Assembly (NCBI GenBank): GCA_012441205.1
Contig: GCA_012441205.1_4705.1
DNA from: a phage
Length of the DNA stretch: 64,000 nucleotides
Reading direction: 5' to 3' (one strand)
Shown piece after piece: positions 44-61,291 of this stretch. A program made the position numbers and the translations under genes. Position 1 is the stretch's first letter. The number at the start of each line of letters is the position of its first letter. The notes under the pieces were generated by a model. The model ran no database searches, was not told the origin of the DNA, and saw only the letters and a program-made list of their open reading frames with translations.

Positions 44-469
44 TTAATTCAGTGATGCATATAAGGCATAACGACTGTAGATCTCAACCGCCGGTCCGTT
101 ATGCGTTAACAGACCGTCTCGGCTGTAATACTGGAAAAATGAATAACGTTTGTCGAAGTGATAAACAAAAGCAATGTCTTTGCCGTCAAAACCTGTGATG
201 CGTGGTCTGTTTTTATCTAGCAATGCTTTGACTTTTAACAGTGTTGCCGCACGTGCTTTAACGTTAGGGATCAAGCCATCACAATCGATATAAACAGTGT
301 AACCTGTTTCAGATGTTGCGACGGTCGTATTGCGATTGACGCGGAAGATTTTTGTTTCGTATGTACTATCTTCAAGAATTGGGTTTTGTTTTTCGTATTT
401 TCGTTTACGCAGAAATTCTACAACGGTGATATAGTTAGCGGTAATATGCCCGGTTATAGCTTGTAACAT
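44..469 (-). CDS. hypothetical protein (141 aa)
   Basis: ORF with AAGGA SD 7 nt upstream of ATG; preceded by conserved leader and promoter-like motif. Confidence 0.6.
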   Translation of the reverse strand: MLQAITGHITANYITVVEFLRKRKYEKQNPILEDSTYETKIFRVNRNTTVATSETGYTVYIDCDGLIPNVKARAATLLKVKALLDKNRPRITGFDGKDIAFVYHFDKRYSFFQYYSRDGLLTHNGPAVEIYSRYALYASLN

Positions 470-1911: not shown

Positions 1912-3213
1912 TTAACTAATATAAAGTTCGGGATCGTAAGGCGCTAACGATACACTGGCGTTATGCATTGCTTTCATCATAGTGTTCATGAAAACGTTGT
2001 TTACACCGGTGATCTCTGCCCCGATCGCGTCTGGGGTTGGAGCCATCGCGTTACCGCAACAGGTAGCACAGTATTCCAGTGGGCCTGCTTTACAACGTTG
2101 AGGATCACGTAACTTGATGGTCTGTCCTTCCAAGGAAGCAAGTAATTCAGCATCAATAAGTTTAAGCGCTGCGCCGTCGATCATGTAACGGCCGACAAGC
2201 AGCTTATCTTTGATATGATCGCGGTTTACCGTGAACAGAATATGTTCGTGGGTACCACAGTCGTCCATCGTGATTTTAAGGTTCTGTGTCGCACGTTGTG
2301 ATTCTTTCGCCGTCTGTCCCGCTAAAGCGGTCAGTGCGCCACGTGAGAACGAACCTGCACGTGCGCTGTTGTTGTACTCCGCCCAATGGTCGACACGCAT
2401 CCCTTCAGCCAGGCTGTGTGTGATAACGTTACGTTTACCAGGGTCAACGAAGTCGGCTTCAACCCCCATCATGATGTGCGTTTTCTTTCGAGTATTACCG
2501 AAACTCTTACCGGGGTTAATATAGAACCCTTCCGATTCATCACCCTTAAAGGATTCCTTATCCATTTTGGTCAGCGTGGCTTCGAGTTTGATCAGTTCTT
2601 CAGGCGTGAACTTACCTTCCTCTTGTAAGCGTGCTAACTCTTTATCGCGATAGGCAATAATATCATCATCGACCGTTAACGCTTTATCACTCATTGATGG
2701 AACAATTAAACGGTTGATAGCGGTTAACGCACTAATATTGTTGGTGAATTTCTTCACTTCGCTTGCGTACAACGGACCAATTGGACGTTCGTTAGGATCG
2801 GGTATTCCCTCTTCAGGATCGTCAGCGACGCGTGGCGCAATCAGTGACTCCAGTGTACCGCTGGTCAACCGTCCTGCCTGGTATTCAATCTGAATACCGA
2901 AAGCATCATAAAGGACGTACATATTGAACAACGCTTCACCGAAGGTTGTGGTGGTTGTATTCTTAACCGACGGTAGATCACCAGGTGCAAGCTCCAATGG
3001 CTCCCAGAAACTCAACAGGGGTTTTGTTGGCTCGGTTTCCCATTGGTGTTCTTCACCGTCGATGGTAACCGTAACGACGTTACCTTGACGACGTAATTTA
3101 GGCTGATACTTCTCAGCGCCGCCTTCCGTAAAAGCAAATGCGTCGTTAATCCATTCAAGATAACGGTAGTGCCCTTCACGCATCGCGTAAAGGAAATATT
3201 CACGAGGTGTCAT
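1912..3213 (-). CDS. hypothetical protein (433 aa)
   Basis: long ORF, AGGAG SD; no motif recognised. Confidence 0.65.
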   Translation of the reverse strand: MTPREYFLYAMREGHYRYLEWINDAFAFTEGGAEKYQPKLRRQGNVVTVTIDGEEHQWETEPTKPLLSFWEPLELAPGDLPSVKNTTTTTFGEALFNMYVLYDAFGIQIEYQAGRLTSGTLESLIAPRVADDPEEGIPDPNERPIGPLYASEVKKFTNNISALTAINRLIVPSMSDKALTVDDDIIAYRDKELARLQEEGKFTPEELIKLEATLTKMDKESFKGDESEGFYINPGKSFGNTRKKTHIMMGVEADFVDPGKRNVITHSLAEGMRVDHWAEYNNSARAGSFSRGALTALAGQTAKESQRATQNLKITMDDCGTHEHILFTVNRDHIKDKLLVGRYMIDGAALKLIDAELLASLEGQTIKLRDPQRCKAGPLEYCATCCGNAMAPTPDAIGAEITGVNNVFMNTMMKAMHNASVSLAPYDPELYIS

Positions 3214-8295: not shown

Positions 8296-10908
8296 TTAAG
8301 CGTCCGGCGTAAAATCAAAAGGAATGTCCGTACGAATGATATCATAACGTTTTCCGAGGAAATAAAACTCTTCGGGAACCTGACCGGGAATAATGCTATC
8401 ACCGATGAACTGCGGATACGCCCAGATGTACTGAGTGAGTCCTTCGAACATATCCAGGTTATTTGCGTGGTTACCCATGATACGTTTCCAGAGTTCGCGT
8501 TTATACGGCGTTTTAACATCGAAACCATAAAGCGGTGCAAGATCTTCACCAGGAACAAATCCCAGGTAATAGTGAATCTGACTAACCGGGAAACCAAGCG
8601 TATCTCGCGGAATGGTGATCGCTTGCTCAGCTTTGGTGACATGCGTTTCAATAATCCAGTCGTAGCACTCTGAATAGAACCGATCGAATTTCTCTGGATT
8701 ATACCACGCTTTGGGAAGATTCAGTTTCTCCGTGAACGCATTCGACATGATCGTCGGTAAGAACGGAAGAACACCGGTTTTGATCTGCGTGTATTTCGAT
8801 TTTACCCGGTTAGCCAAATTCCAGCAACTGTATCCTAACTGTTCGTTACAAAACTCAACGTAGAGATCGTAATCACCGCCGGATAATGGGTTGTTGATAT
8901 CACCAATGTCTGCAGCGTATTTGTTGGGATATCGGTTATTGAAAGCCAGTTTGGTTTGGTAATCGTAGATACACGGTTTGTTGTTCGCTGTATTGATCCA
9001 CCACCAGGGTTCACCCACCTGTACACAAATGTCCTGGACATGAGGGTAAATAATATCGGCAAACGCGGTTAACACATCCCCTAACCACGCCATCGCCTGT
9101 TGGTTACATGGAGACAGCAACCAGGACGGTGGTGTATATCCGGTTGCTGCGATGTTTCCTTCCCAATCCTGCTGCGCCCACTCGAACGGGCAGGCTGTAC
9201 TCATCAATTCGTAACTTAAACTGATGGTGACAGAGAAATGGTGTTTTGCAGCATATGCGGCGAAAGCTTCATGCCACGCGATACAGGGTGGATTTAATAC
9301 ATCCGTGGTGTTCACCAGTAACTTACCCGCACTTGGCGTCCAGACAGTATCGTAGAAATGCGACATTCCAACATAATGCACTAATTCATCTTGATACCCC
9401 GCATAAACCAGGTTCTCAAATACACGCTCTGGCGTGATGTTGTAATGGTCATCGTAAGCGGTTATCGCACGAAGTTCGTGTGGTGTACAGTGGTGACGAT
9501 TAACCGTCATTTCCTGATACACCCCATCGATAGGAAGAATCTCGAGGGTTAAACCGAGGTCGATTGGCGTTTCCAGATAGGTCGTTTCAGTCGCACCTTC
9601 CTTATAATGTCGAGAACTCATGCTGAACATCAACGATGCTACCGATTCGAGTTCGATAGGCTCGTCAGCATAGAACCCCGCCATTGCGTCATTGAAATCG
9701 ATCGTTACGATTGCGCTTCTACCGTCTTCAGAGACATCGGTGGCGTATCGGGTTAATGAGATATACTGACGGCTATCGTCTTTGTGTACGACGGTTAAAA
9801 CCGGCGGGTTTTCGGTATCTGCAAAGTTACGCTGATCGCCAGTAAACGTGATCTTCGCTTTAAAGATCAAACCGAATAACGACGTCATGGGATCATACGC
9901 AATACAACCGTGATCCAGCGTATCCGTTGTCCGCCATTCTATCCCGACCAACCCGTTAGCGGTATGGCATCGCATATACGCATTAAGGACCATGTCTTCA
10001 CTGACAACCGCGAAGTTCTCTGTTGACTGACCGTTGATAATCCAATACATCGGTTGCCAGAGGTTACGCGTACCTTTTGCGTAGCGGTAGGTTGGTGCGC
10101 CTTTAGGGTTGCCGTTATTGAGATGGAATACGGCAGTACCTTGATAATGGTCGTTCGTATTAATCGGAACACTGTAAGCGTCACCGAGGTCCGTACGTTC
10201 CACCTTCGTGACCGTTGCGTTTTCAAATAACCCACGCAACGCTGGTAAACCGATATCTTCAGGCGCGTTTTCTCGACGAATCGCATCCGCGATGCGATGG
10301 GCTAAGGCGGGGTAAATAGCTTCACCCTGTTGTAGGTTTGCAAGACCTACAAAGCGATCAGGGTCGATACCAGCAATCAATAACTCAACATCACCCTTCG
10401 TTCTATCGTCGTTAAGATATTTCAGTCCGGTAAGGTCAAGATGCTGAATAAGCGACAACAGGTTGTATTTACGGTTTTCAACAGTTAGTACAAGATCGCC
10501 TGCCCAAACCAAACTTCCCTCATCCGCTGTTACTTTAACGGATTGTCGGCCTGTGGTAGACGTTGTTGTCGTTTTATTTAATTGTCCTTGTAGGAAGTCG
10601 GTTGCGAGGTCAAAGGCAATACCGTAACGGTCAGCGACCGCTTGCATGATTTCACGTAACTGGGTATCTTCTTCAATGATAATCTTGACAGGTATTCCCA
10701 GGAACGCTTTAGCGAGGTCTCGTTTAACCAACGAGACGAATACGGATTTGTAGTATCGGCTTCCATCTTTCCCTTTAAAAAGAATGGAGGTTGTTTCGGG
10801 TGCCGATAGAACACGTGCAAATTCAACATCGTCGAAAGTAAGAGAAAGTCCGTTTTTCTCGTTGACCAATCTTAGTATTTCATTTTGCGCGGTTTCATGT
10901 AACTTCAT
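8296..10908 (-). CDS. receptor-binding protein (tail fibre/spike) with conserved N-terminal anchor domain and large unique C-terminal domain (870 aa)
   Basis: N-terminal 150 aa align with four other proteins (17249..19003, 16563..17090, 22652..23482, 59837..61291); GAGG SD. Confidence 0.7.
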   Translation of the reverse strand: MKLHETAQNEILRLVNEKNGLSLTFDDVEFARVLSAPETTSILFKGKDGSRYYKSVFVSLVKRDLAKAFLGIPVKIIIEEDTQLREIMQAVADRYGIAFDLATDFLQGQLNKTTTTSTTGRQSVKVTADEGSLVWAGDLVLTVENRKYNLLSLIQHLDLTGLKYLNDDRTKGDVELLIAGIDPDRFVGLANLQQGEAIYPALAHRIADAIRRENAPEDIGLPALRGLFENATVTKVERTDLGDAYSVPINTNDHYQGTAVFHLNNGNPKGAPTYRYAKGTRNLWQPMYWIINGQSTENFAVVSEDMVLNAYMRCHTANGLVGIEWRTTDTLDHGCIAYDPMTSLFGLIFKAKITFTGDQRNFADTENPPVLTVVHKDDSRQYISLTRYATDVSEDGRSAIVTIDFNDAMAGFYADEPIELESVASLMFSMSSRHYKEGATETTYLETPIDLGLTLEILPIDGVYQEMTVNRHHCTPHELRAITAYDDHYNITPERVFENLVYAGYQDELVHYVGMSHFYDTVWTPSAGKLLVNTTDVLNPPCIAWHEAFAAYAAKHHFSVTISLSYELMSTACPFEWAQQDWEGNIAATGYTPPSWLLSPCNQQAMAWLGDVLTAFADIIYPHVQDICVQVGEPWWWINTANNKPCIYDYQTKLAFNNRYPNKYAADIGDINNPLSGGDYDLYVEFCNEQLGYSCWNLANRVKSKYTQIKTGVLPFLPTIMSNAFTEKLNLPKAWYNPEKFDRFYSECYDWIIETHVTKAEQAITIPRDTLGFPVSQIHYYLGFVPGEDLAPLYGFDVKTPYKRELWKRIMGNHANNLDMFEGLTQYIWAYPQFIGDSIIPGQVPEEFYFLGKRYDIIRTDIPFDFTPDA

Positions 10909-10930: not shown

Positions 10931-11572
10931 TTAAATGTACTGCTTACCGCCCACGAAGGAAGTTAACCAGTTCCCGCTGACGAGTTGTGATACCCAGCCT
11001 GGAACGGCTCTACCATTCTGGCTCATGATGTTACCACACCAACCAGGGAATCCGGGACGGATGTAATAGAAAGTTAAATTGTAGAGATGGCAATTCCATA
11101 CCGCAACGTTATGTTTACCAGAAACCGCTTTAAAGACAAACGCGACAGGTAACGGAGACGATAACAATTCGGTCACAGGGACGGCTGACCAGTTCGCATT
11201 CGCGTTCCATGGTTGCCAGGTATGGCTGCGCGAGTCGCAATATACGTTACCGTTGTTACCGCGCCCACCCGCATTCCACCACAGCGACGGACTCATGTTC
11301 TTAAGTGAGGTAAATTGCTGCGGTGGAATATTAGGAATAATAACAGGGTTGGTACCTTGCCCATGTTTCTTTTCTTTTGCGTTCACATACCCGCTTATCG
11401 ATTCGAGGTATTTGACACCAGGATAATTATTCTGGACTTGTGTCGCAATATCACGAACATCGAACGTCCAGCAGATCATGGTGTTGTAGTAAGCATCGGT
11501 GTTGTCGTACCATGCGTTACCATCTTGTAAACGTGCGCCACTATTCGGTGTTTTATCTGTGTTTATAGCCAT
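10931..11572 (-). CDS. fibre-associated protein, paralog A (213 aa)
   Basis: C-terminal about 45 aa nearly identical to the protein at 11582..12349; lies between fibre genes. Confidence 0.6.
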   Translation of the reverse strand: MAINTDKTPNSGARLQDGNAWYDNTDAYYNTMICWTFDVRDIATQVQNNYPGVKYLESISGYVNAKEKKHGQGTNPVIIPNIPPQQFTSLKNMSPSLWWNAGGRGNNGNVYCDSRSHTWQPWNANANWSAVPVTELLSSPLPVAFVFKAVSGKHNVAVWNCHLYNLTFYYIRPGFPGWCGNIMSQNGRAVPGWVSQLVSGNWLTSFVGGKQYI

Positions 11573-11581
11573 AGTGTTGTC

Positions 11582-12349
11582 CTATACTGCGATGATTGAG
11601 ATATCGGATGCCGGATGTGTGTTGCCATCAGGTGGTACGTACAGAAACACCCACAGATAAAACAGTAGCTTCTCTAACTTCAATTTAATTGAAGTTAGAT
11701 ATTGTTTACCTCCAACAAACGACGTTAACCAATTACCTGAAACAAGTTGCGATGCCCAGCCAGGCACTGCCCTACCGTTCTGGCTCATCACGTTACCTGC
11801 CCATCCCGGAAAACCAGGTCGGAAAATATATACTTGAATATGTGTTAAAGCGTTATCATTACCACCGCCAACAGCAACGTTACGACTCCCAGATGACGGG
11901 AAATATTCTTTTAAGAACAGAGGATCGGTTGCTAATAAAGATGCGGGCCAAGGGTTCGCGGATGCATCAACATCGAATTCGGTCCATCGCCATTTACGTC
12001 CCGTGTCGAACCATGTCGATGTACCACCACCCCTCACGGCAAGATTGCGCGCATCACGGACATTATAAATTGATTCGATGTTACGCCATCCACCTTTTGC
12101 AGCGTTTGCTGCATAGCAAACCGCATTACCACCATTCTTCTTCTCGTAAACGGTTCGTTTGATATGAACACGGTCGATGAACGCTTCACCGTATTTGTTG
12201 ACGAGCGTTTGTGCGATATCACGAAGATCGTGCATGTGAAAAGCGATGTCTTCGTTATGGAACCATGTTGTCTGGTTCCAGACGGTACCGTTTGGTTCGG
12301 CACACATCGATCGGATATTGTTGCGTTGATTAATCGCGATAAAACCCAT
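11582..12349 (-). CDS. fibre-associated protein, paralog B (about 255 aa)
   Basis: homologous to 10931..11572 along its length; start set at ATG 12349 with GAGG SD (track ORF extends to 12436). Confidence 0.55.
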   Translation of the reverse strand: MGFIAINQRNNIRSMCAEPNGTVWNQTTWFHNEDIAFHMHDLRDIAQTLVNKYGEAFIDRVHIKRTVYEKKNGGNAVCYAANAAKGGWRNIESIYNVRDARNLAVRGGGTSTWFDTGRKWRWTEFDVDASANPWPASLLATDPLFLKEYFPSSGSRNVAVGGGNDNALTHIQVYIFRPGFPGWAGNVMSQNGRAVPGWASQLVSGNWLTSFVGGKQYLTSIKLKLEKLLFYLWVFLYVPPDGNTHPASDISIIAV

Positions 12350-12404
12350 TGTATACCTCGTTCCTATTCTCAAAAAGGAAATTTCATACGATGACGCCAT
12401 AGCA

Positions 12405-12434
12405 GCTCCTCCTTCCCTTACGGGTTGGAGGAGC
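12405..12434 (-). terminator. hairpin element, second copy of the 7279..7312 element
   Basis: reverse complement nearly identical to 7281..7312; no strong U-tract. Confidence 0.4.
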
Positions 12435-12442
12435 ATACTTAA

Positions 12443-12949
12443 TTACTCGCTGATAACCTCAACGGAATTGGGATCAGCGATCATCGCACGGTCAGTAGAA
12501 CAATTGAAGAAGACCATGCCGACACCATCGCCGTTCGAGTTCAGGGTTGAACTTACGTAAGACAGGGTTGGTTTATTCATGCGGTAGAAGCGTTCGCTGG
12601 TTGCGGTATTGAACCCCAGGTCAACGTAGTCTTTCACCGTGGTGTACAACTGTGTGGACTCGAAAACGGTTACCGGAGAGTCGACGGTAAATTGACTACC
12701 TTCGTCTACAACCAGAACTTTATCGTTCCAGATTTCAGTGGTTGAGAACTTCGGTTTCCAATGTTCGAATTCCTGGGTTGCACCCCAGCAAGAATACACA
12801 GCGAGATTGCTGTTCTTCTCAACAGGTTTCAACCCCACCAGTTGTGTCAGGTCTTTATCCAGGTTCGGTAAGCCTTCCAGCGTAGCACACCCACCCAGAG
12901 AAAGTACCATCAACATACCAAGAACGATCGCACAAAGTTTCTTCATCAT
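12443..12949 (-). CDS. lipoprotein (168 aa)
   Basis: signal peptide ending in lipobox LSLGGC; AAGGAAA SD; directly downstream of the long tail fibre gene. Confidence 0.65.
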   Translation of the reverse strand: MMKKLCAIVLGMLMVLSLGGCATLEGLPNLDKDLTQLVGLKPVEKNSNLAVYSCWGATQEFEHWKPKFSTTEIWNDKVLVVDEGSQFTVDSPVTVFESTQLYTTVKDYVDLGFNTATSERFYRMNKPTLSYVSSTLNSNGDGVGMVFFNCSTDRAMIADPNSVEVISE

Positions 12950-12997: not shown

Positions 12998-15217
12998 TTA
13001 CTTTTTGAGCGCTTTAAGTTCTTCTTCCATCGCTTCCACTTTTGCCGTAAGCTTCTGTACTTGTTTGATTAATGGAACCACCAAACGTTCGTACATAACA
13101 CCTTCGGCGACGAGTCCGTTAGAAGAAACGATAGCGGGGTCATCTTCTTCGGTTGCATCACGCCAATGCACGTATTGTGGTGCGATCTCACCAACCTCTT
13201 CGGCAATCAACCCATACCAACCCCAATCCTTGTTGTCGGCTTCGCAGGTAGAACGATACCAGACAGGACGCATCTCCAATACTTTATCCGCTTGTTCATC
13301 CGTGATATTCTCGATATCTTTCTTATAGCGCCGCGACGACGTTGAACGAAACACATTGTTGATCCCAGCAGTAGGACTGATATACATATTAGCCCCGCTG
13401 GTTGTAGTGCTAATGTCCCATACCGCAAATCCGCCGTTACTCCCATTTCTCACGACCAACGTATTGGCAATAATATCCAGGTTATTGTTGTAACCGGTTA
13501 ACTGGTTTTCGGTGACAAAATCGGATAAGTTAACGGAGTAGTTCTTGCTGTTATAACAACGACGCCATCCTGGGCTGTTGGTGCTGCCATTATAGTTGTC
13601 GTAGCTATAAATGAACTCGGAGTTGGTTTTCGCACCACTGACGGAAGACGTGGTTGCGGTGGTAACACGGATAGTGTAGTTCGTCATCCCGAAGCTAACG
13701 ACCTCGATAACCGCACCAGCCAGAGGAATAATACCACATTTGGTTTCACTGTCTGGGATGTATGCGCTATCGGCAGCAGCGAAGGAGCAACGTGCGACCC
13801 AGGCACGGGTATTGAATGCACCTTGGTTCTGTAATAACGTAATAAACGATGAGGTCGTAATCGAGCTGTTATTATCACCTGTGATCAACCAGCCGGTTGG
13901 ACATGCGGTAGCACCAACGTTTTTCGCTGTTAGCGTGATGTTCTTCGATCCGTCGAAGGCTACGCCGCTGATGGTACGTGCAGTCTGTAGCTTCGTCGCC
14001 GTTGCCGCGTTCCCTGATGTGTTCTGGTTGCCTGTTGTATTCACACCCGGGATACTATCCTTAGATGTGTAGATCTGTGCCCATTCCGACCATTTCGCAT
14101 CGGTTGAATCACGACGTGAACGTAGGTAAGCTGGAGCGTGTGCACCCGAGGTACCTGACCATCCAATGAGGATTTCACCTTCGCCGACCGATGAAGCGCC
14201 TTTAAGATGAACAACGTTACCGTAGGCTGTAGGGTATCCGTTATTGTACGCTTCATACATCTGGATACCCGTATTGCTGCCCTGGGTCGCATTAGCTAAA
14301 GCGGTAACCCGTCCCTTGGAAGCGAGCACGTTAATGCTAAAGCTAATATCGGTTGTACCGTCAAAGGCGACCCCATTAATCCTCCGCGCTGTTTGGAGTT
14401 TCGTGGCAGTAGCCGCATTACCAGAGGTACTCTGATTGCCTGCTTTGTTCACACCTGGTAAATCAATGTTGGCGGTTCCATCAAAGGACACGCCCCCTAT
14501 GGTTCTCGCCGTCTGAAGTTTTGTTGCTGAACCAGCGTTTCCGGAAGTGCTTTGATTACCCGTCGCGTTGACACCTGGTAGGTTAATGCTAGCAGAACCA
14601 TCAAAAGAAACTCCACCGATCGTAATAGCTGTTCGCAACTTCGTGGCTGTCGCAGCGTTACCCGTCGTATTCTGATTACCAGCTGCATTGACGCCAGGTA
14701 ATGCGATATCAGCTGTGCCATCGAACGCGACACCTCCGATTTTACGGGCGGTTTGTAGCTTGGTTGCTGTAGCAGCATTACCGCTGGTATTTTGCGTACC
14801 GGCTTTATTTACACCAGGAAGATCGATGTTAGCAGAACCATCGAAGCTGACGCCACCTATCGTTCTTGCAGTAGCAAGTTTAGCGGCTGTAGCAGCGACG
14901 TTACCGACTTTTAACCATTCTCCCCATGGACCATCCACACCGTTCCATGATGCCGTTAAACTGCGCACGTATATGTTTCCTGTACGTACTGTGTAACGTT
15001 GTGTTCCACCGAATTGACCGGCTGGGAGCACTTCGATGTAACCTACAGCATTTGCTTCAGGGAAATTGTGGGCAGCATCGGCATTCGTTGATGTTTGTTT
15101 GGACCAAATACCCACAGACGCTTCAACCGGACCGTAGGTATCCAGATTTGCATCGGTGGGGAGCTGTCCTCGAAAACGTCGGAATAATGAAGCCGATAAC
15201 CCCAACGTTGTTTGCAT
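12998..15217 (-). CDS. long tail fibre, distal segment with tandem fibre repeats and C-terminal intramolecular-chaperone (S74-like) domain (739 aa from first ATG)
   Basis: about 40-aa repeats GNAATATKLQTARTIGGVSFDGSANIDLPGVN; C-terminal YKKDIENITDEQADKVLEMRPVWY...GLIAEEVGEIAPQYV; frame stays open upstream of the ATG to 15325. Confidence 0.8.
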   Translation of the reverse strand: MQTTLGLSASLFRRFRGQLPTDANLDTYGPVEASVGIWSKQTSTNADAAHNFPEANAVGYIEVLPAGQFGGTQRYTVRTGNIYVRSLTASWNGVDGPWGEWLKVGNVAATAAKLATARTIGGVSFDGSANIDLPGVNKAGTQNTSGNAATATKLQTARKIGGVAFDGTADIALPGVNAAGNQNTTGNAATATKLRTAITIGGVSFDGSASINLPGVNATGNQSTSGNAGSATKLQTARTIGGVSFDGTANIDLPGVNKAGNQSTSGNAATATKLQTARRINGVAFDGTTDISFSINVLASKGRVTALANATQGSNTGIQMYEAYNNGYPTAYGNVVHLKGASSVGEGEILIGWSGTSGAHAPAYLRSRRDSTDAKWSEWAQIYTSKDSIPGVNTTGNQNTSGNAATATKLQTARTISGVAFDGSKNITLTAKNVGATACPTGWLITGDNNSSITTSSFITLLQNQGAFNTRAWVARCSFAAADSAYIPDSETKCGIIPLAGAVIEVVSFGMTNYTIRVTTATTSSVSGAKTNSEFIYSYDNYNGSTNSPGWRRCYNSKNYSVNLSDFVTENQLTGYNNNLDIIANTLVVRNGSNGGFAVWDISTTTSGANMYISPTAGINNVFRSTSSRRYKKDIENITDEQADKVLEMRPVWYRSTCEADNKDWGWYGLIAEEVGEIAPQYVHWRDATEEDDPAIVSSNGLVAEGVMYERLVVPLIKQVQKLTAKVEAMEEELKALKK
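13936..14908 (-). repeat. in-frame coding repeats of the tail fibre (about 120-nt unit, about 5 tandem copies at 14344..14908 plus one distal copy at 13936..14047)
   Basis: repeats visible in both DNA and translation; copies are diverged. Confidence 0.6.
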
Positions 15218-15281
15218 CCCTTCAATGCTTGACTGCGATAGAAGCGCCCGAGCTGTCGACGTGATGGCCGCTAAAGCAACC

Positions 15282-16556
15282 TTATCCGTACCGGTAAAAA
15301 AACGGGAATTTGTTTGCTGATGTTGCTAAACCTGAAAGGGCGGTCAGTAATGCGTTAAGGGGTTGTTTCCCGGCTAGCGCGTTAGTCACAGTCGTTGCAA
15401 AGTTTGGATCATTACCTAACGCTTGAGCTAACTCGTTAAGCGTATTTAGCGCTTCTGGAGACGAGTCGATCAGCGACGCGATAGCACGCATCACAAATTC
15501 CGTGTTGGCGATCTGTTGACTGCTATCGTTCTCTGCAGCCGTAGGTGCTGCTGGGATACCGGTGAACACAGGGTTATTAAGATCCGCCTTAAGGGCGATG
15601 AGACGTCTAAGTGCTTCAACATCGACTTTCAGGTTTTCCCATCCGACGAGATAACCATCACCGGTTGTGTGATAACGGTTGTACCAAAAATCGCCATTAA
15701 CGCCAAAATAAAATATTCCCTTCTCTTCGTATTGTGGGCCAGAACTGTTCCGTGATGAGCTAATGTATTTTATTTCGATAAGGCCGTTGAATACCACTCC
15801 TGGGATAATTTTGTCGTTTCCAGACGATTGCGATACCTGGTAAGCCCCCGGTGTTGTGGCTCTAACCCAAGTCAAGAATTCTGATGTTCCAGCGTTACCG
15901 CTAAAACGCTTGACGTCGGTAAGTATCGCACCAAAACCGAACATACCGGGTAAAGCAACTCGCCCATCGGTACGGTCACGAATATCTGTTGCAACAACAG
16001 GCAACTGCTTACGAACATCATTAACTGCTTTAGGTGTCGCTGATTTTGTCTCATCGTCGCTATCGATATCACTGCTCAGGATGGTCAGTCCTCGAGTATC
16101 TGTGGTTGCATCAGGAAGAAACGCGTTATCTAACACCTTAAGCTGTATCGCATCCGTGTTATTAACAACAACATACACTTGACAGTTAAGAACGCTGGTT
16201 GCGCCTTCGGTAGGCACAGGCTTGTATCTTTCTGGTGCACTGCATACGGCGACCAGAACACCTTGATTGTCATACAGACCGATCTCACGTACCCAGAACC
16301 CACCTTGACTGGCAGGAATAATACCCTCAACAATAATCCTGGTTGTGTCGTCAACATCAATACGGATGTTGGAAACTTCCCCACGATAAACTTCGTGTAC
16401 AAGTGCTGTTTGGCTAGCATCGGGGGTTGGTGTAGAACCGTTGCCATCACCAACGGCAAAATGCGTAATTCTTAGTTTCTCACCGTCAGGAAGTAATGCT
16501 GCGGTGATACGTTCAGCGCCTTTATCGGTAATGACCGTTTTATAAGTTGTACTCAT
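15282..16556 (-). CDS. tail fibre, N-terminal segment (P2 gpH-like tail-collar fibre domain), ends prematurely at the T7 run (424 aa)
   Basis: MSTTYKTVITDKGAERITAAL...ITHFAVGDGNG...QTALVHEVYRG...GGFWVREIGLYD matches the P2 H / tail-collar fibre N-terminal domain. Confidence 0.85.
   Translation of the reverse strand: MSTTYKTVITDKGAERITAALLPDGEKLRITHFAVGDGNGSTPTPDASQTALVHEVYRGEVSNIRIDVDDTTRIIVEGIIPASQGGFWVREIGLYDNQGVLVAVCSAPERYKPVPTEGATSVLNCQVYVVVNNTDAIQLKVLDNAFLPDATTDTRGLTILSSDIDSDDETKSATPKAVNDVRKQLPVVATDIRDRTDGRVALPGMFGFGAILTDVKRFSGNAGTSEFLTWVRATTPGAYQVSQSSGNDKIIPGVVFNGLIEIKYISSSRNSSGPQYEEKGIFYFGVNGDFWYNRYHTTGDGYLVGWENLKVDVEALRRLIALKADLNNPVFTGIPAAPTAAENDSSQQIANTEFVMRAIASLIDSSPEALNTLNELAQALGNDPNFATTVTNALAGKQPLNALLTALSGLATSANKFPFFYRYG
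15296..15302 (-). other. T7 homopolymer (A7 on plus strand) at the frame change joining the two tail fibre segments
   Basis: removing one T fuses ...ANKFPFF to TGTDKVALAAITSTARALL... in frame. Confidence 0.55.
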
Positions 16557-16562
16557 GGCGTT

Positions 16563-17090
16563 TTATCCCGGGTAAATAGTGATGACATCACCGATGACAG
16601 TTGCCGCACCGACGCAAAGATACGCTGGTGATGTATCACGCTGGTTTGTCACGATAAGATCCAATTGCCCACGCCAAACCATGGAGGTATTCGCGATGGG
16701 AATCGAGATCTTCTTGGAAGTATCGTCACGAAAATTAATGGCGGTAGCAAGGGTAGCTGAATCAAAATCAACGTCGGGTTCAAAGTTGAAACCGTATTGA
16801 TCCGAAATAGCTTGAATAACCGCTCTTATGGTTGTTGTTTCAACCGACTCCAAAACGATTTTTATCGGTATTCCTAGAAATGCTTTCGCTATATCACGCC
16901 GTGTGTAAGTGATAAAACTTTCACCACACCACCTTGTTCCTTCATTTGCTGTGACGATCACTTTTGCCCTGTTAACACCAGAACTCCCATCCAGGGTTAA
17001 AGTGAGATCGGAGTTGCTGAATACACTACTGTTACGTTGGTTTATCAACGTAATAAGTTCGTCTTTCCATGGTGGGTAAAGTGAACGCAT
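16563..17090 (-). CDS. anchor-domain protein, short paralog (175 aa), immediately upstream of the tail fibre gene
   Basis: MRSLYPPWKDELITLINQRN...RRDIAKAFLGIP aligns with the conserved N-terminal domain; start set at ATG 17090 with GGAGGAGGG SD. Confidence 0.65.
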   Translation of the reverse strand: MRSLYPPWKDELITLINQRNSSVFSNSDLTLTLDGSSGVNRAKVIVTANEGTRWCGESFITYTRRDIAKAFLGIPIKIVLESVETTTIRAVIQAISDQYGFNFEPDVDFDSATLATAINFRDDTSKKISIPIANTSMVWRGQLDLIVTNQRDTSPAYLCVGAATVIGDVITIYPG

Positions 17091-17195
17091 AAGCGCACCC
17101 TCCTCCAACAATCGAATTAATATGCAAAAACGCCTCGAAACAGGAGTGCGATTCGAGGCTAACGTAAACAGTCTTAACGACCGCATAAAATTCCG

Positions 17196-17240
17196 CGCAT
17201 ATTGCCCCTCTATCCCGACAAAGCGAGATAGAGGGGAGGA
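17196..17240 (-). terminator. hairpin after CDS 17249..19003
   Basis: 10-bp stem CCCCTCTATC/GATAGAGGGG with 12-nt loop; weak U-tract. Confidence 0.35.
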
Positions 17241-17248
17241 TAATACGA

Positions 17249-19003
17249 TTATGCTGCTACATATCCAGGCCAACGTTCTCTTGGCCAGTTTGTTGCGCCC
17301 TGTCCAACGTTGTCCTTACCAGAAATTACATTACTTACGTCCCAACCACTAAGATCCTGGTTAAATGCGGTGTTGTTACGCATCATGAGGTCGATATTAC
17401 GTAATGATTGGGTATTCCAGCCGGAAATGTCTTGGTTGAATGCCGTGTTGTAAGCAAACATGTTAACAACGTTTTGTAATTTTGAAGTGTTCCAGCCGCT
17501 AATATCGCCATTGAACTGCATGCTCGAGAACATACTGCTAGCATCGATAAGACTATCTGTTTTCCAGTTAACCAGCTTGTTTTCATCAAGTGCGTTGCAA
17601 CTACTGAACATGTAACTCATGTTGTTAACTTTGGATACATCCCATTTATCTAACCCGTTACCAACGAACTCGTAACAAGCTTGGAACATCCAGCTCATGT
17701 CGGTAACCTGGCTCACATTCCATTTGCTAAAGTCGAGGTTGAGTTTTGCGCATCCGGAGAAAGTTTTATACATACTGGTGATACGACTAACATCCCATTC
17801 TTGAATGTTAGGATCATTAAGTATAGATAAGAATTGGAACAATCCGTCTAACGACGTCCATTTCTCTGGAATACGGTTTGGTACTGTACGGAGCGATGAA
17901 AGGTTATTGGTTGACGGAGAGCGGAACATACCGTTATCCCAATTTACGATTTCCGTAATGTTGTACCCACGGATCGTTTGGCGTCCATTACCATTATACA
18001 CAGACCCTGTTGCAGTTATTGTATATTCGTTTGTATCAGCATACGTATGTTCAGCCTGTGTAGGCCACTCACCTATTACATCCCTATTCCCATCACCCCA
18101 ATCGATGGAAATATTTGTCCAACCATCAAGATCTAGGGTAACGGTCCCGCCATTGGTCTTCAGGATGTATTTACCTGCATTGTCGGTATAATAACAAACG
18201 ATCATCGCACCGTACAGGTTACCAATTTGCCAATCATCCTTTTGAGTTACCGCGATATGTGCTGTGCCACGTTGTAGGAAAAGAACCGTACGGTTCTCGT
18301 CAGTCTGTAATGTGGTTAATGCTTGAGCCTTATCATCGTCGGTAATTTCACCAGCTTCCACTAAAGCACTTAACATTCTTTCGAAGTATTCGATGGGTAA
18401 TTGGTGTCCTACAGACATATCAACTGATGGAACAGCGAGATCATCCAATGCGGCGGCAGTTGCAAGCACTAATGATCCATTGGTGGTGTCTGTTTCTTGG
18501 AGGTAATGCAGTCCCGTAATCTGGTACGCTTGAATGATTGTAATCAGATCCAGCGTATCGTTAATGACCTGTACTTGTAAATGTCCAGACCAAACATAGC
18601 TGCTTTCAGCAATCGGTAATTCGACCGACTGAATACCCGATGTTTCAAAACTGATCTTCTTATTAAGATCGGCTTCCAGGAAATCAACCGCGAGGTCGAA
18701 ATTTATACCGTACTTTTCAGCGATGGAATCTATGATGTTCCTGAAAGCAACATCGGTACTTACGATGAATCGTAAAGGGATTCCTGTGAACGCATTAGCA
18801 ATATCTCGACGAACATACGTAAGTGATTGTTCGAAGAAATAGGGACTGTTATCTCCAGGTTTGATGGTTACCTGACACATTTCAGGATGTTCAGCTGGGA
18901 TGAACGATTCAAATTTAACATCGGATTCCTTCAACGAAAGCATGTTCTTCCGGTTTACCAGCGCCAGAAGATCGGCTTTCCATCCAGGATAAACAGTAGA
19001 CAT
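17249..19003 (-). CDS. receptor-binding protein: N-terminal anchor domain, PKD-like motif and C-terminal BspA/DUF285-type repeats (about 584 aa)
   Basis: anchor alignment; ISIDWGDGN...HTYADTNEYTI; repeats WDVSxVTxMxxMFxxCxxFNxDISxW; start set at ATG 19003. Confidence 0.7.
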   Translation of the reverse strand: MSTVYPGWKADLLALVNRKNMLSLKESDVKFESFIPAEHPEMCQVTIKPGDNSPYFFEQSLTYVRRDIANAFTGIPLRFIVSTDVAFRNIIDSIAEKYGINFDLAVDFLEADLNKKISFETSGIQSVELPIAESSYVWSGHLQVQVINDTLDLITIIQAYQITGLHYLQETDTTNGSLVLATAAALDDLAVPSVDMSVGHQLPIEYFERMLSALVEAGEITDDDKAQALTTLQTDENRTVLFLQRGTAHIAVTQKDDWQIGNLYGAMIVCYYTDNAGKYILKTNGGTVTLDLDGWTNISIDWGDGNRDVIGEWPTQAEHTYADTNEYTITATGSVYNGNGRQTIRGYNITEIVNWDNGMFRSPSTNNLSSLRTVPNRIPEKWTSLDGLFQFLSILNDPNIQEWDVSRITSMYKTFSGCAKLNLDFSKWNVSQVTDMSWMFQACYEFVGNGLDKWDVSKVNNMSYMFSSCNALDENKLVNWKTDSLIDASSMFSSMQFNGDISGWNTSKLQNVVNMFAYNTAFNQDISGWNTQSLRNIDLMMRNNTAFNQDLSGWDVSNVISGKDNVGQGATNWPRERWPGYVAA

Positions 19004-19041
19004 AAGCACTCCAATCATGGGGCGGTAACCGCCCCCATCAG

Positions 19042-22651: not shown

Positions 22652-23482
22652 TTAATCGTAACTAAAATAAAGTTTGCTGCTGACGCCGCTATCGGAATGA
22701 GGTTTTAACACCAGAACAGAGCTTCCGAACGACGGAAGTATTGGAACATCTAAATCGTTCGCATCGGCAACTTTTCCATTATAAACGACATTGGCTGTTG
22801 TGATGAGTTCCCAGGCTAAGGTATAACTCATTGAAATCAGCGACGAGGCTAAACGGAATGCATTGTATCCTTCTGGAGTATCTCCAACCGACATCGTACG
22901 TATCGCATCTTGCGGCGGTAAATTTAGCTTGATGCCGTAGGTGCTGAATGTGTGGAAATCCCCTTGTTTACTATCTTCTGGATAATACGAGGTTAGCGGT
23001 TCTCGCACCGTAATCAGTTCGCTAATATCGGTACTTACCGCTTTTCGGGCGAGGAATTGAAACGTACCGTACCACGATGCTGATGTATCAGAATGAACGG
23101 GAACAGCTATGGTTTTCTCGTCGCTTTCAAATTTAACCTGCGACACTAACGCTGAAGAATCAAAGATCGTTAAATCGATCTTCAACCCATACTTCTTAAA
23201 CAGCTGCGTTAAGCAGTCTGCTATCGTCGTCTTATCAGCAACGACAATAAAAGGTTGGTGTTTGATAAAGAGCTTATTAATGTCTCGACGTTGAAGATAA
23301 ACCTGTACGGGGTCTTCGATATAGTAAGCCGATTGTGGTGCGGGGACTATAGAAAGGCGTAACCGACCTGATGCACCATACCAGGCTGGCGTTAACGTAA
23401 CGTCTGACAGAGACAACGGGTGCTGGAGATAGGCGTTTATTTTAGATAACACTTCCTCCTGCCATGATGCTTCAGGATACAT
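22652..23482 (-). CDS. anchor-domain protein, divergent paralog (276 aa); first gene of the fibre operon
   Basis: W..EVL..IN...LSLSDVTL...YYIEDPVQVYLQRRDINKLF...YGLKIDL aligns with the conserved anchor domain; GAGG SD. Confidence 0.65.
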   Translation of the reverse strand: MYPEASWQEEVLSKINAYLQHPLSLSDVTLTPAWYGASGRLRLSIVPAPQSAYYIEDPVQVYLQRRDINKLFIKHQPFIVVADKTTIADCLTQLFKKYGLKIDLTIFDSSALVSQVKFESDEKTIAVPVHSDTSASWYGTFQFLARKAVSTDISELITVREPLTSYYPEDSKQGDFHTFSTYGIKLNLPPQDAIRTMSVGDTPEGYNAFRLASSLISMSYTLAWELITTANVVYNGKVADANDLDVPILPSFGSSVLVLKPHSDSGVSSKLYFSYD

Positions 23483-59836: not shown

Positions 59837-61291
59837 ATGAAACTCAAACAAAGCTGGAAAGACGAACTTCTCGCGTTAGTAAACAGCAAAAACAGTTTAC
59901 AACTGACATTAGACGATGTAAAATTTGAACTAACGGCACCGGTAAGCGAAGTGCCTGGAACGGTCGTTGTTACAATCAAACCGAACGATAATAGTCGCTA
60001 CTTTAACGAGCAGTCTCTGACCTACATCCGTCGAGACATCGCTAAAAACTTCACCGGGATCCCGTTACGGGTTATCGTTAAGCAAGATACCGCTGTAAGG
60101 GATATCATCAATACGATTGCTGAACGTTACGGATTGGTATTTGACACAGCCGTCGACTTCCTCGAATCCGAGCTGAATAAACAAATTACGTTCGCAGACA
60201 CCGGTATTAAAGACATTACGGTTCCGGTTGCAAACACGTCTTATGTTTGGGCGGGTAATCTTCAGTTCAATATTGCTAACGATACGTTAAGCTTGATTAC
60301 TATCATCAAGAAAACCGATCTTACGAATCTGGTTTATCTGGATGGTGTTGAAGCTGACACATCTGGTTCGTTACTATTAGCAACCGCAGCACTTGTTAAC
60401 GAACACGTAAATGAACCGATGGTTGAAAACGAAGATATCGTTAATGAATTTATTAACGTTCTTAATACTCTAGCCAAATATGGTGACATAACCGGCGATG
60501 AATTAGATGCCGCCTTACAAGCGTACGATGAAGCAGAAAACAGGAATAAAACCACGGTAATAACTCTTGGTGATATCCAGTGTGTTGCAACAGAAAAAGA
60601 CGATTGGGAAATTGGACGTTTACGCGGTCAGATGGTTCTCGCGCTCAAATCCGATAAATACCCGGAGCCCGATAACACGTTCAGGTTGTTTACGAATGGT
60701 GGTGACGTATCGCTAACGTTAAACACAATGAAAGATATAAGTATCGATTGGGGTGATGGGAATAAAGTAACGTTGGATGCTGAAGAAAGATACGCGCACC
60801 ACACATACGCCGACAATAACCAGTACCAAATCGAAATTGTGTCTCGTACGGACCCAGATGTGCTGCGACCAAATTATATTTCTGGGAGTGAGATAACCGA
60901 AGTAATTCACTGGGCTACTACTTCAACAATAGCTCTGAATTTTGTTGGATGCGATAATTTAGCGACTGTTCCAGATGAGATCCCAACTTCGTGGACAACG
61001 TTGGACAGCATGTTTGAAAGTTGTACGAATTTGAATGATCCGTCTATCTCTAACTGGAATACAAGTAACATCACATCAATGAATGGTATGTTCGGCGGAT
61101 GCACTAAATTTAACCAACCTTTAGCTGCCTGGGATGTCAGCTCAGTAACTGACATTGGTGGTATGTTTAACGGATGCAACAGTTTTAACCAAGATTTAAG
61201 TGGGTGGCGATTACCGTCAGGAGTAACCCACGACAATTACGATAGTGGTGCTTTCTCGTGGCAGACGGAACATAAACCGACGTTCCAGTAA
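59837..61291 (+). CDS. receptor-binding protein: N-terminal anchor domain, PKD-like motif and C-terminal BspA/DUF285-type repeats (484 aa)
   Basis: anchor domain aligns with 17249..19003 and others; ISIDWGDGNKVT...HHTYADNNQYQI; repeats NWNTSNITSMNGMFGGCTKFNQPLAAWDVSSVTDIGGMF. Confidence 0.7.
   Translation: MKLKQSWKDELLALVNSKNSLQLTLDDVKFELTAPVSEVPGTVVVTIKPNDNSRYFNEQSLTYIRRDIAKNFTGIPLRVIVKQDTAVRDIINTIAERYGLVFDTAVDFLESELNKQITFADTGIKDITVPVANTSYVWAGNLQFNIANDTLSLITIIKKTDLTNLVYLDGVEADTSGSLLLATAALVNEHVNEPMVENEDIVNEFINVLNTLAKYGDITGDELDAALQAYDEAENRNKTTVITLGDIQCVATEKDDWEIGRLRGQMVLALKSDKYPEPDNTFRLFTNGGDVSLTLNTMKDISIDWGDGNKVTLDAEERYAHHTYADNNQYQIEIVSRTDPDVLRPNYISGSEITEVIHWATTSTIALNFVGCDNLATVPDEIPTSWTTLDSMFESCTNLNDPSISNWNTSNITSMNGMFGGCTKFNQPLAAWDVSSVTDIGGMFNGCNSFNQDLSGWRLPSGVTHDNYDSGAFSWQTEHKPTFQ

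Follow-up and report, generated by a model that had tools for sequence, protein, structure and literature searches.

What does a jumbo phage do with two adjacent genes whose products differ over most of their length and share a nearly identical 42-residue segment? The genes, here called p1 and p2, lie in a 64,000-nucleotide stretch of phage DNA (NCBI GenBank assembly GCA_012441205.1, contig GCA_012441205.1_4705.1), which we refer to as the window. The window is closely related to Escherichia phage vB_EcoM_Goslar, a nucleus-forming jumbo phage (chimallivirus), with flanks at ~96% nucleotide identity. The genes of interest are all on the minus strand, and their coding-strand order is tail fibre, lipobox gene, p2, p1 and 870-aa gene (Table 1). 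Our favoured answer, held at somewhat less than even confidence, is that p1 and p2 are accessory glycan-binding subunits of the virion that act in host recognition, each with a variable head and a module that serves as an anchor. We infer glycan binding, docking through the module, a virion location and an effect on host range from an exchanged body that resembles a carbohydrate-binding module (CBM), the invariant segment that bounds it, the host-recognition context of the genes, the retention of copies among relatives and detection in virions.

The preliminary description of this DNA had reported two homologous adjacent open reading frames (ORFs), and both are present on the minus strand. Their products are 38% identical over the whole length (BLASTP, E=2e-34). 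Without the module, the bodies are about 24-26% identical (E=1e-6, 142 aa aligned), and an intermediate relative, database cluster P0003, is 46% identical to p1. The near-identical C-terminal motif quoted in the preliminary description is exact, with 38 of 41 residues identical between the two proteins (38 of 42 counting the last residue). The 64-kb window has just two copies of the module (tblastn E=1e-26 and 1e-24; the next match has E=0.05).

The module DNA had been called diverged, with selection acting on the protein, and this also holds. It is 72% identical between p1 and p2, with pS=0.93 and pN=0.08 (Nei-Gojobori), and synonymous sites are saturated. The same codon is used at 9 of the 34 identical residues with degenerate codons, where independent draws would give 11.6. 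Because synonymous sites are saturated, pN is low and shared codons are not in excess, the similarity of the modules is attributed to purifying selection, which maintains it at the protein level. Recent gene conversion between p1 and p2 in the window genome is rejected by the same codon count. We also rejected an excess of synonymous divergence, as might arise from selection against tandem recombination: pS is 0.93-0.98, but the codon count gives P=0.21. Both bodies are under purifying selection as well, p1 relative to Goslar (dN 0.020, dS 0.224, dN/dS ~0.09) and p2 relative to the related genome L003 (dN 0.007, dS 0.193, dN/dS ~0.04).

Comparison with close relatives reveals how the bodies and the module evolve. 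The direct ortholog of p1 is Goslar gp87 (QBO63880.1 / YP_009820772.1), a hypothetical protein at the same position between gp88 and gp86, with 95.8% protein identity, and the region around it is syntenic at 96% nucleotide identity. Goslar has a single family copy, whereas the window has two. In a sliding comparison with L003, identity is 93-100% in the flanks, falls to 52-83% across the p1 body (~11540..11061) and returns to 98-100% exactly at the module. Against L002, whose p2-type gene has a P0003-type body, identity falls to 25-50% across the p2 body (~12345..11841) and recovers at the module. The adjacent gp86 stays ~95% identical while the p1 body changes, and differences among p1 orthologs cluster at residues 10-36 and 83-107. 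Both bodies thus behave as swapped cassettes whose boundary is the start of the module. Host-range determinants often behave in this way.

The module itself also carries traces of exchange. In Goslar gp87 it contains a central 18-codon patch of p2-type codons (Goslar 9230..9360, compared with window 11695..11823), and 19 of 32 codons are the same as p2-type codons where 10.8 are expected. Conversion between paralogs therefore does occur, and patches are found in the p1 modules of both Goslar and L002. The codon pattern of the Goslar patch suggests gene conversion in which the donor was a paralog now missing from Goslar.

Gain and loss of the two genes follow a consistent pattern. Both are intact in the window and in L003. 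Goslar and L013 carry p1 together with a 24-codon in-frame remnant of a P0003-type p2; in Goslar (L001) the remnant, MAIARTIGFTSSTHPISATSTTNI, lies in the nominally intergenic segment 9872..10048 between gp88 and gp87. L011 has p1 only. L017 has an 88-aa p2 remnant (87..353) beside a p1 gene that is cut by the contig end after its first 147 residues, and the remnants of Goslar and L017 reflect separate deletions at this one locus. In L002 the p2-type gene is intact, and the p1 ortholog (2441..3082) starts with GTG and is interrupted in frame by a stop at codon 98 (Trp98); otherwise 94% identical, it may be a pseudogene or an assembly error. At the L016 locus a p2-type gene is the only family copy, and p1, a gp86-like gene and a long fibre gene are all missing. 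An intact family copy is thus present in every genome whose context can be read. These patterns of presence and absence indicate that each locus is dispensable and that one intact copy is always kept. Recombination between the two modules is excluded as the cause of p2 loss in Goslar, which retains the p1 body together with the in-frame start and tail of p2.

The p1/p2 family is very small, about a dozen to twenty clusters among billions of proteins, and has not been described previously. A word-indexed search of 5.8 billion proteins returned four clusters, a full HMMER profile search of 1.84 billion representatives returned 11, and a second profile search returned 13. In the annotated phage collection, homologs are found only in Goslar, Serratia phage PCH45 and Salmonella phage SPLA10, each annotated as 'hypothetical protein'. 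All members with genomic context belong to chimallivirus or chimallivirus-like jumbo phages, and the known hosts are E. coli, Salmonella and Serratia (Enterobacterales). Neither p1 nor p2 matches a family in Pfam (E<=0.1), PHROG (E<=0.01) or NCBIfam (E<=1). A Pfam scan of eight distant homologs gave nothing significant, and neither a profile search of the PDB nor one that used the additional C-terminal domain found in the longer homologs gave a match below E of about 1.

Across this family the module is the best-conserved block, including in the distant homologs from PCH45, SPLA10 and metagenomic jumbo phages. Family-wide, the N-terminal body is 16-37% identical and the C-terminal module 43-100%; between p1 and the distant clade the values are 16-19% and 43-64%. 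Columns F175, P176, G177, P191, G192, Q196, L197 and L203 of the module are invariant. In longer homologs (344-369 aa) the module lies within the protein, ahead of a further domain of ~150 residues, and it is therefore a signature of the family and not merely the tail of two paralogs.

Structure prediction suggests what the variable body may do. With a 6-sequence alignment, AlphaFold2 gave a pLDDT of 74.5 and a beta-sandwich body, with the module (175-207) below 50. With 15 sequences the mean pLDDT increased to 80.0, with values of 56-70 in the module; the sandwich was the same, a short helix formed at 179-185 and a final strand (207-212) rejoined the sandwich. Confidence in the module is thus low to moderate in these monomer models. 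A Foldseek search of BFVD recovered Goslar gp87 and the PCH45 homolog, followed by weak matches to tail-protein domains and to one CBM96-annotated phage protein. The body can be superposed on the CBM96/DNRLRE structures 7VBO and 8WAB at a sequence identity of only 6-10%, and its likeness to a CBM is a resemblance of predicted fold only. Both p1 and p2 are basic (pI 9.0-9.3) and contain 11 Trp each. CBM96 binds acidic polysaccharide in a basic groove (PMC9971899). The beta-sandwich predicted for p1/p2 is shared with the CBM96/DNRLRE domains, which bind alginate (7VBO; PMC9971899) or chondroitin sulfate (8WAB). Those CBMs are domains of an enzyme, however, whereas p1 and p2 are stand-alone proteins, and the 42-residue module has no counterpart in them.

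Published data place the Goslar ortholog in virion preparations. Basu et al. (2026; bioRxiv 10.64898/2026.04.21.720040) combined cryo-electron microscopy (cryoEM) of the Goslar virion with virion protein quantification, and their Table S4 lists gp87 in purified virions at an estimated ~19 copies per virion (range 13-30), from 4 peptides that cover 28.6% of the protein. Its mass in the table, 23,641 Da, matches Goslar_00087. Known 12-copy components of the neck and baseplate score 12-20 in the same table, and the other products of the region are listed at ~4.5 (gp86), ~740 (gp88), ~52 (the assembly protein gp89) and ~43 copies (the fibre gp90) (Basu et al., 2026). The protein is outside both the model and the text of that study, in which the peripheral baseplate and fibres are unmodelled (Basu et al., 2026). 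The gp87 copy number is suggestive as weak evidence, as likely contaminants reach similar values. The PCH45 homolog (QFP93093.1 / YP_011108444.1) goes unmentioned in the main text of a preprint on Tn-seq and proteomics of that phage.

The genomic context is also one of host recognition. In Goslar-like phages, p1/p2 genes are co-oriented inside the host-recognition cluster. In the PCH45/SPLA10 clade, a single homolog lies directly downstream of a 575-aa Peptidase_S74 protein that ends a run of large structural-looking genes. The preliminary description had set the pair between a long fibre and an 870-aa spike. On the fibre side, a 168-aa lipoprotein-like gene intervenes before p2. The supposed spike, directly downstream of p1 on the same strand, is instead a DUF7941, NCTSP_N and TIM-barrel protein orthologous to Goslar gp86. 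Basu et al. (2026) placed gp86 in a DUF7941 filament family, with carbohydrate-binding and glycoside hydrolase domains, and proposed that this family forms a filament cloud for host recognition.

This neighbour raises the possibility, which we consider very unlikely, that p1 and p2 are detachable carbohydrate-binding subunits of the glycosidase-like gp86 protein and dock onto it through the module. In its favour, p1 and the gp86-like gene that follows it on the same strand are 22 bp apart, gp86 has both predicted carbohydrate-binding and glycoside hydrolase domains, and the ratio of gp87 to gp86 by mass spectrometry (MS) is ~19 to 4.5. Family members nonetheless occur apart from such a partner: L016 has none at its locus, and no gp86 homolog is detectable near the family genes of the PCH45/SPLA10 clade, where no window ORF other than p1/p2 has a BLAST match. 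The change of p1 body beside a nearly constant gp86 is neutral with respect to docking via the module. We also found no body homology between the family and its neighbours (in hhalign, the family profile matched the 870-aa and the 1198-aa protein at a probability below 1%), and Pfam places DUF7941 in the 870-, 236- and 589-aa neighbours and not in p1 or p2.

The preliminary description had offered fibre assembly chaperones as a second role for p1 and p2, and this reading fares worst among the alternatives and is the least probable of those that we consider. Like the Caudo_TAP/Tfa proteins (Goslar gp89), p1 and p2 are small and encoded downstream of fibre genes. Some proteins of that type stay with the virion, and gp89 is itself found in Goslar virion preparations. 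The type of p2 also loosely tracks the fibre, P0004 occurring with S74 fibres in the window and L003, and P0003 with TAP in L002 and Goslar. On the other hand, p1 and p2 have no sequence match to Caudo_TAP (PF02413/PF28596) or any other chaperone family in Pfam, and their CBM-like sandwich is a different fold. The fibres are already provided for: the window fibre ends in its own Peptidase_S74 intramolecular chaperone domain (Pfam), Goslar has a separate Caudo_TAP assembly protein gene (gp89), and the genuine Caudo_TAP gene of L002 is likewise separate. L013 and L016 keep a family member without a long fibre gene at the locus, and p1 is the same protein beside different fibres, so the family is independent of fibre type.

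The alternative role proposed in the preliminary description, that of tip adhesins with a shared docking module, agrees in part with these results. The CBM-like fold, the cassette swapping and the ~19 copies of gp87 in virions (Basu et al., 2026, Table S4) favour an adhesin, and a position at the fibre tip has no support. The shared segment is the most conserved part of the family; docking can be put only conditionally, as the module is modelled at low to moderate confidence and is not terminal in the longer homologs.

Several observations weigh against our reading of p1 and p2 as anchored, glycan-binding virion subunits. First, membership of CBM96/DNRLRE is not detected at the sequence level (Pfam E<=0.1; NCBIfam including NF033679, E<=1), and the CBM-like beta-sandwich is a very common fold. 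Second, neighbouring structural proteins have no BLAST match between clades while the module remains 43-64% identical, and short SPLA10-type members replace both conserved module Trp residues. The constancy of the module across clades fits a conserved ligand or a catalytic-type site at least as well as docking. Third, the L016 member persists without gp86 or a long fibre at its locus, and a 218-aa member on L014, a distant and unrelated jumbo-phage-like contig (P0006, 8001..8657), follows thymidylate synthase and precedes a P-loop protein and many small genes that look non-structural, away from any obvious fibre cluster and ~5 kb from a weak DUF7941-like gene. Finally, thymidylate synthase scores ~20 copies in the Goslar virion data, and chimallin and PhuZ co-purify (Basu et al., 2026).

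The second of these points suggests a reversed polarity, in which the invariant segment, rich in Gly, Trp, Asn and Gln, itself binds a ligand that all the hosts share, a conserved envelope sugar, or forms a catalytic-type site and the body is mostly scaffold. A module far better conserved between clades than any neighbouring protein would be expected of such a site, as would its richness in Trp, Asn, Gln and Ser, which is typical of sugar-binding sites. The internal position of the module in long homologs, its modelling as a surface excursion whose last strand is part of the sandwich and the restriction of known hosts to Enterobacterales (E. coli, Salmonella and Serratia) are in keeping with this proposal too. 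We nevertheless regard it as distinctly unlikely. It leaves unexplained both the sharply bounded exchange of bodies and the purifying selection on two different bodies in one genome, the SPLA10-type Trp replacements count against it as well, and the monomer model does not fold the module confidently.

A further alternative is that p1 and p2 are non-structural intracellular proteins, for example in host takeover or anti-defence, with the position in the fibre cluster due to chance and the MS signal to carry-over. The low abundance of gp87, its absence from the cryoEM model and from the preprint discussion, the similar copy numbers of obvious non-virion proteins and the placement of the L014 homolog among metabolic and small genes would all be accommodated, and conflict genes, too, typically show paralog turnover and hypervariability. 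This explanation is unlikely in our view, as it has to contend with the CBM-like predicted fold and the weak BFVD matches that include phage tail-protein domains, with co-orientation inside structural clusters in three lineages, and with the persistence of one or more copies in all genomes whose context is readable. Moreover, p1 and p2 matched no defence or anti-defence-related model in a PADLOC scan.

Under the favoured reading of p1 and p2 as accessory virion subunits, they would be low-copy proteins of the host-recognition apparatus, located at the peripheral baseplate, the fibres or the DUF7941-filament region. The variable body of ~170 residues would bind a bacterial surface glycan, and the constant Gly/Trp/Pro-rich module of ~42 residues would attach the protein to a conserved partner in the virion or let it self-associate into an oligomer. 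The module DNA may in addition provide the block of homology at which phages exchange bodies. With two different bodies the phage would have two binding specificities, and either copy could be lost as long as one is kept. A bolder extension, doubtful but still a real possibility, is that the module acts as a universal plug by which interchangeable glycan-binding heads are clipped to the peripheral baseplate or the DUF7941 filament cloud, and that it doubles as a recombination joint. If so, a small plug-in adhesin system distinct from the classical fibres would tune the host range of these jumbo phages, and p1 and p2 would be two heads carried at once.

The closest functional parallel is with the gp38-type adhesins of T2, T6 and S16. 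Both gp38 and p1/p2 are small separate proteins encoded beside a fibre gene, with one constant part that presumably attaches to the virion and one variable part that presumably binds the receptor, and Gly-rich conserved sequence and mosaic exchange are features of both. Their polarity is opposite: gp38 has a conserved N-terminal attachment region and a variable C-terminal part, whereas p1 and p2 have a variable N-terminal body and a conserved C-terminal module. Neither p1 nor p2 matches the gp38-type adhesin family model (Pfam E<=0.1, PHROG E<=0.01). As a kind, accessory receptor-binding proteins that combine a constant anchor with a variable binding part are already known; a stand-alone, CBM-like family with reversed polarity, present here as a tandem pair, had not been described.

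For the study of host recognition by chimalliviruses such as Goslar, this family offers a defined domain logic of exchangeable sugar-binding-like head and constant module. Natural single- and double-copy variants, mapped cassette boundaries and published evidence for an association with virions make a direct test of a modular host-range determinant feasible, and head swaps at the module junction would provide a compact handle for host-range engineering. Should the proteins prove non-structural, they would still form an orphan family with an unusually constrained 42-residue motif.

Table 1. Features of the p1/p2 locus, in window coordinates.
Feature	Coordinates	Strand	Basis
Tail fibre	16556..12998	-	ORFs
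168-aa lipobox protein, Goslar gp88 ortholog	12443..12949	-	ORF list, phrog_9559 match
p2, 255-aa paralog	11582..12349	-	ORF list; matches database cluster P0004 (255 aa)
p2 body, variable cassette	11822..12349	-	Homologous to p1 body, ~24% identity
p2 conserved module (RPGFPGWAGNVMSQNGRAVPGWASQLVSGNWLTSFVGGKQYL)	11696..11821	-	tblastn E=1e-24; codon alignment
p2 read-through tail, 37 residues	11585..11695	-	Ancestral stop codon lost
Perfect palindrome, 12-bp arms, CTAACTTCAATT-A-AATTGAAGTTAG	11673..11699	.	Sequence, L002/L003 alignment, stem-loop scan
p1, 213 aa, ortholog of Goslar gp87 (Goslar_00087 / HOV27_gp087)	10931..11572	-	ORF list
p1 body, residues 1-171, variable beta-sandwich, predicted CBM-like	11060..11572	-	Predicted structure
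p1 conserved C-terminal module, residues 172-213 (RPGFPGWCGNIMSQNGRAVPGWVSQLVSGNWLTSFVGGKQYI)	10934..11059	-	38/42 identical to p2
870-aa DUF7941 + NCTSP_N + TIM-barrel protein, Goslar gp86 ortholog	8296..10908	-	Pfam E 1.4e-44, 1.3e-10, 3.9e-85

The two ends of p2 require comment. At its 5' end, starts at 12400 or 12436 are alternatives to 12349, which agrees with the p1 N-terminus and with the database gene call P0004. At its 3' end, p2 continues beyond the module into a hydrophobic tail. The p2-type gene of L002 stops after GGKRYLNAI, where the equivalent downstream DNA is intergenic, and the P0003, P0005 and P0006 proteins all end in YL(N/T)A(I/L). In the window, the TAA stop kept in L002 has been replaced by a 9-bp insertion that creates the perfect palindrome listed in Table 1. 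The frame therefore reads through former intergenic DNA, which adds the tail, and the same state is found in L003 and in cluster P0004. The insertion looks like a templated (hairpin-mediated) mutation.

A separate hairpin (12403..12435, minus strand) with an 8-bp stem (GCTCCTCC...GGAGGAGC) lies just 3' of the stop of the lipobox gene and is conserved, being present in Goslar too. Its GGAGGA arm resembles a ribosome-binding site for the ATG at 12400.

The gp88-type lipobox gene lies directly upstream of a family member in every Goslar-like genome examined with a readable flank. The gp88 ortholog carries a lipobox (LSLGGC) along with a signal peptide, and in L016 a lipobox (LLTGC) is kept despite a diverged signal peptide. 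The mature part is ~90-97% identical. Homologs of gp88, one of them annotated as DUF2846, are found in SPN3US-like and Erwinia jumbo phages without any p1/p2 family member, and gp88 is undetected in PCH45 or SPLA10; on these grounds we rejected a general co-occurrence of gp88 with the family. The abundance of gp88 in Goslar virion preparations might reflect membrane carry-over.

A receptor-binding protein gene next to a lipoprotein gene is the layout of T5-type phages (pb5/oad with llp). The Goslar-like genomes examined resemble it in that the lipobox gene adjoins putative receptor-binding genes. They differ from it in that gp88 is highly conserved while the p1/p2 bodies vary, that gp88 also occurs in phages without p1/p2 and that it is abundant in virion preparations.

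The long fibre of the window is a single gene, which a +1 frameshift within seven consecutive T (15290..15305) breaks into the ORFs 15282..16556 and 12998..15217, both on the minus strand. The corresponding position reads TTTTTC in L003 and TATTTT in Goslar, where the fibres are single proteins of 1009 and 1324 aa, respectively. The frameshift could be a sequencing or assembly error, a genuine inactivating mutation or a slippery site.

The chimallivirus-specific N-terminal DUF7941 module is found in several window proteins (8296..10908, 16563..17273 and 17249..19018, all on the minus strand), with weaker matches at 22652..23482 (minus strand) and 59837..61291 (plus strand). It is fused to differing C-terminal parts, including the TIM barrel and DUF285 repeats, and the 589-aa and 236-aa DUF7941 ORFs overlap by 25 bp.

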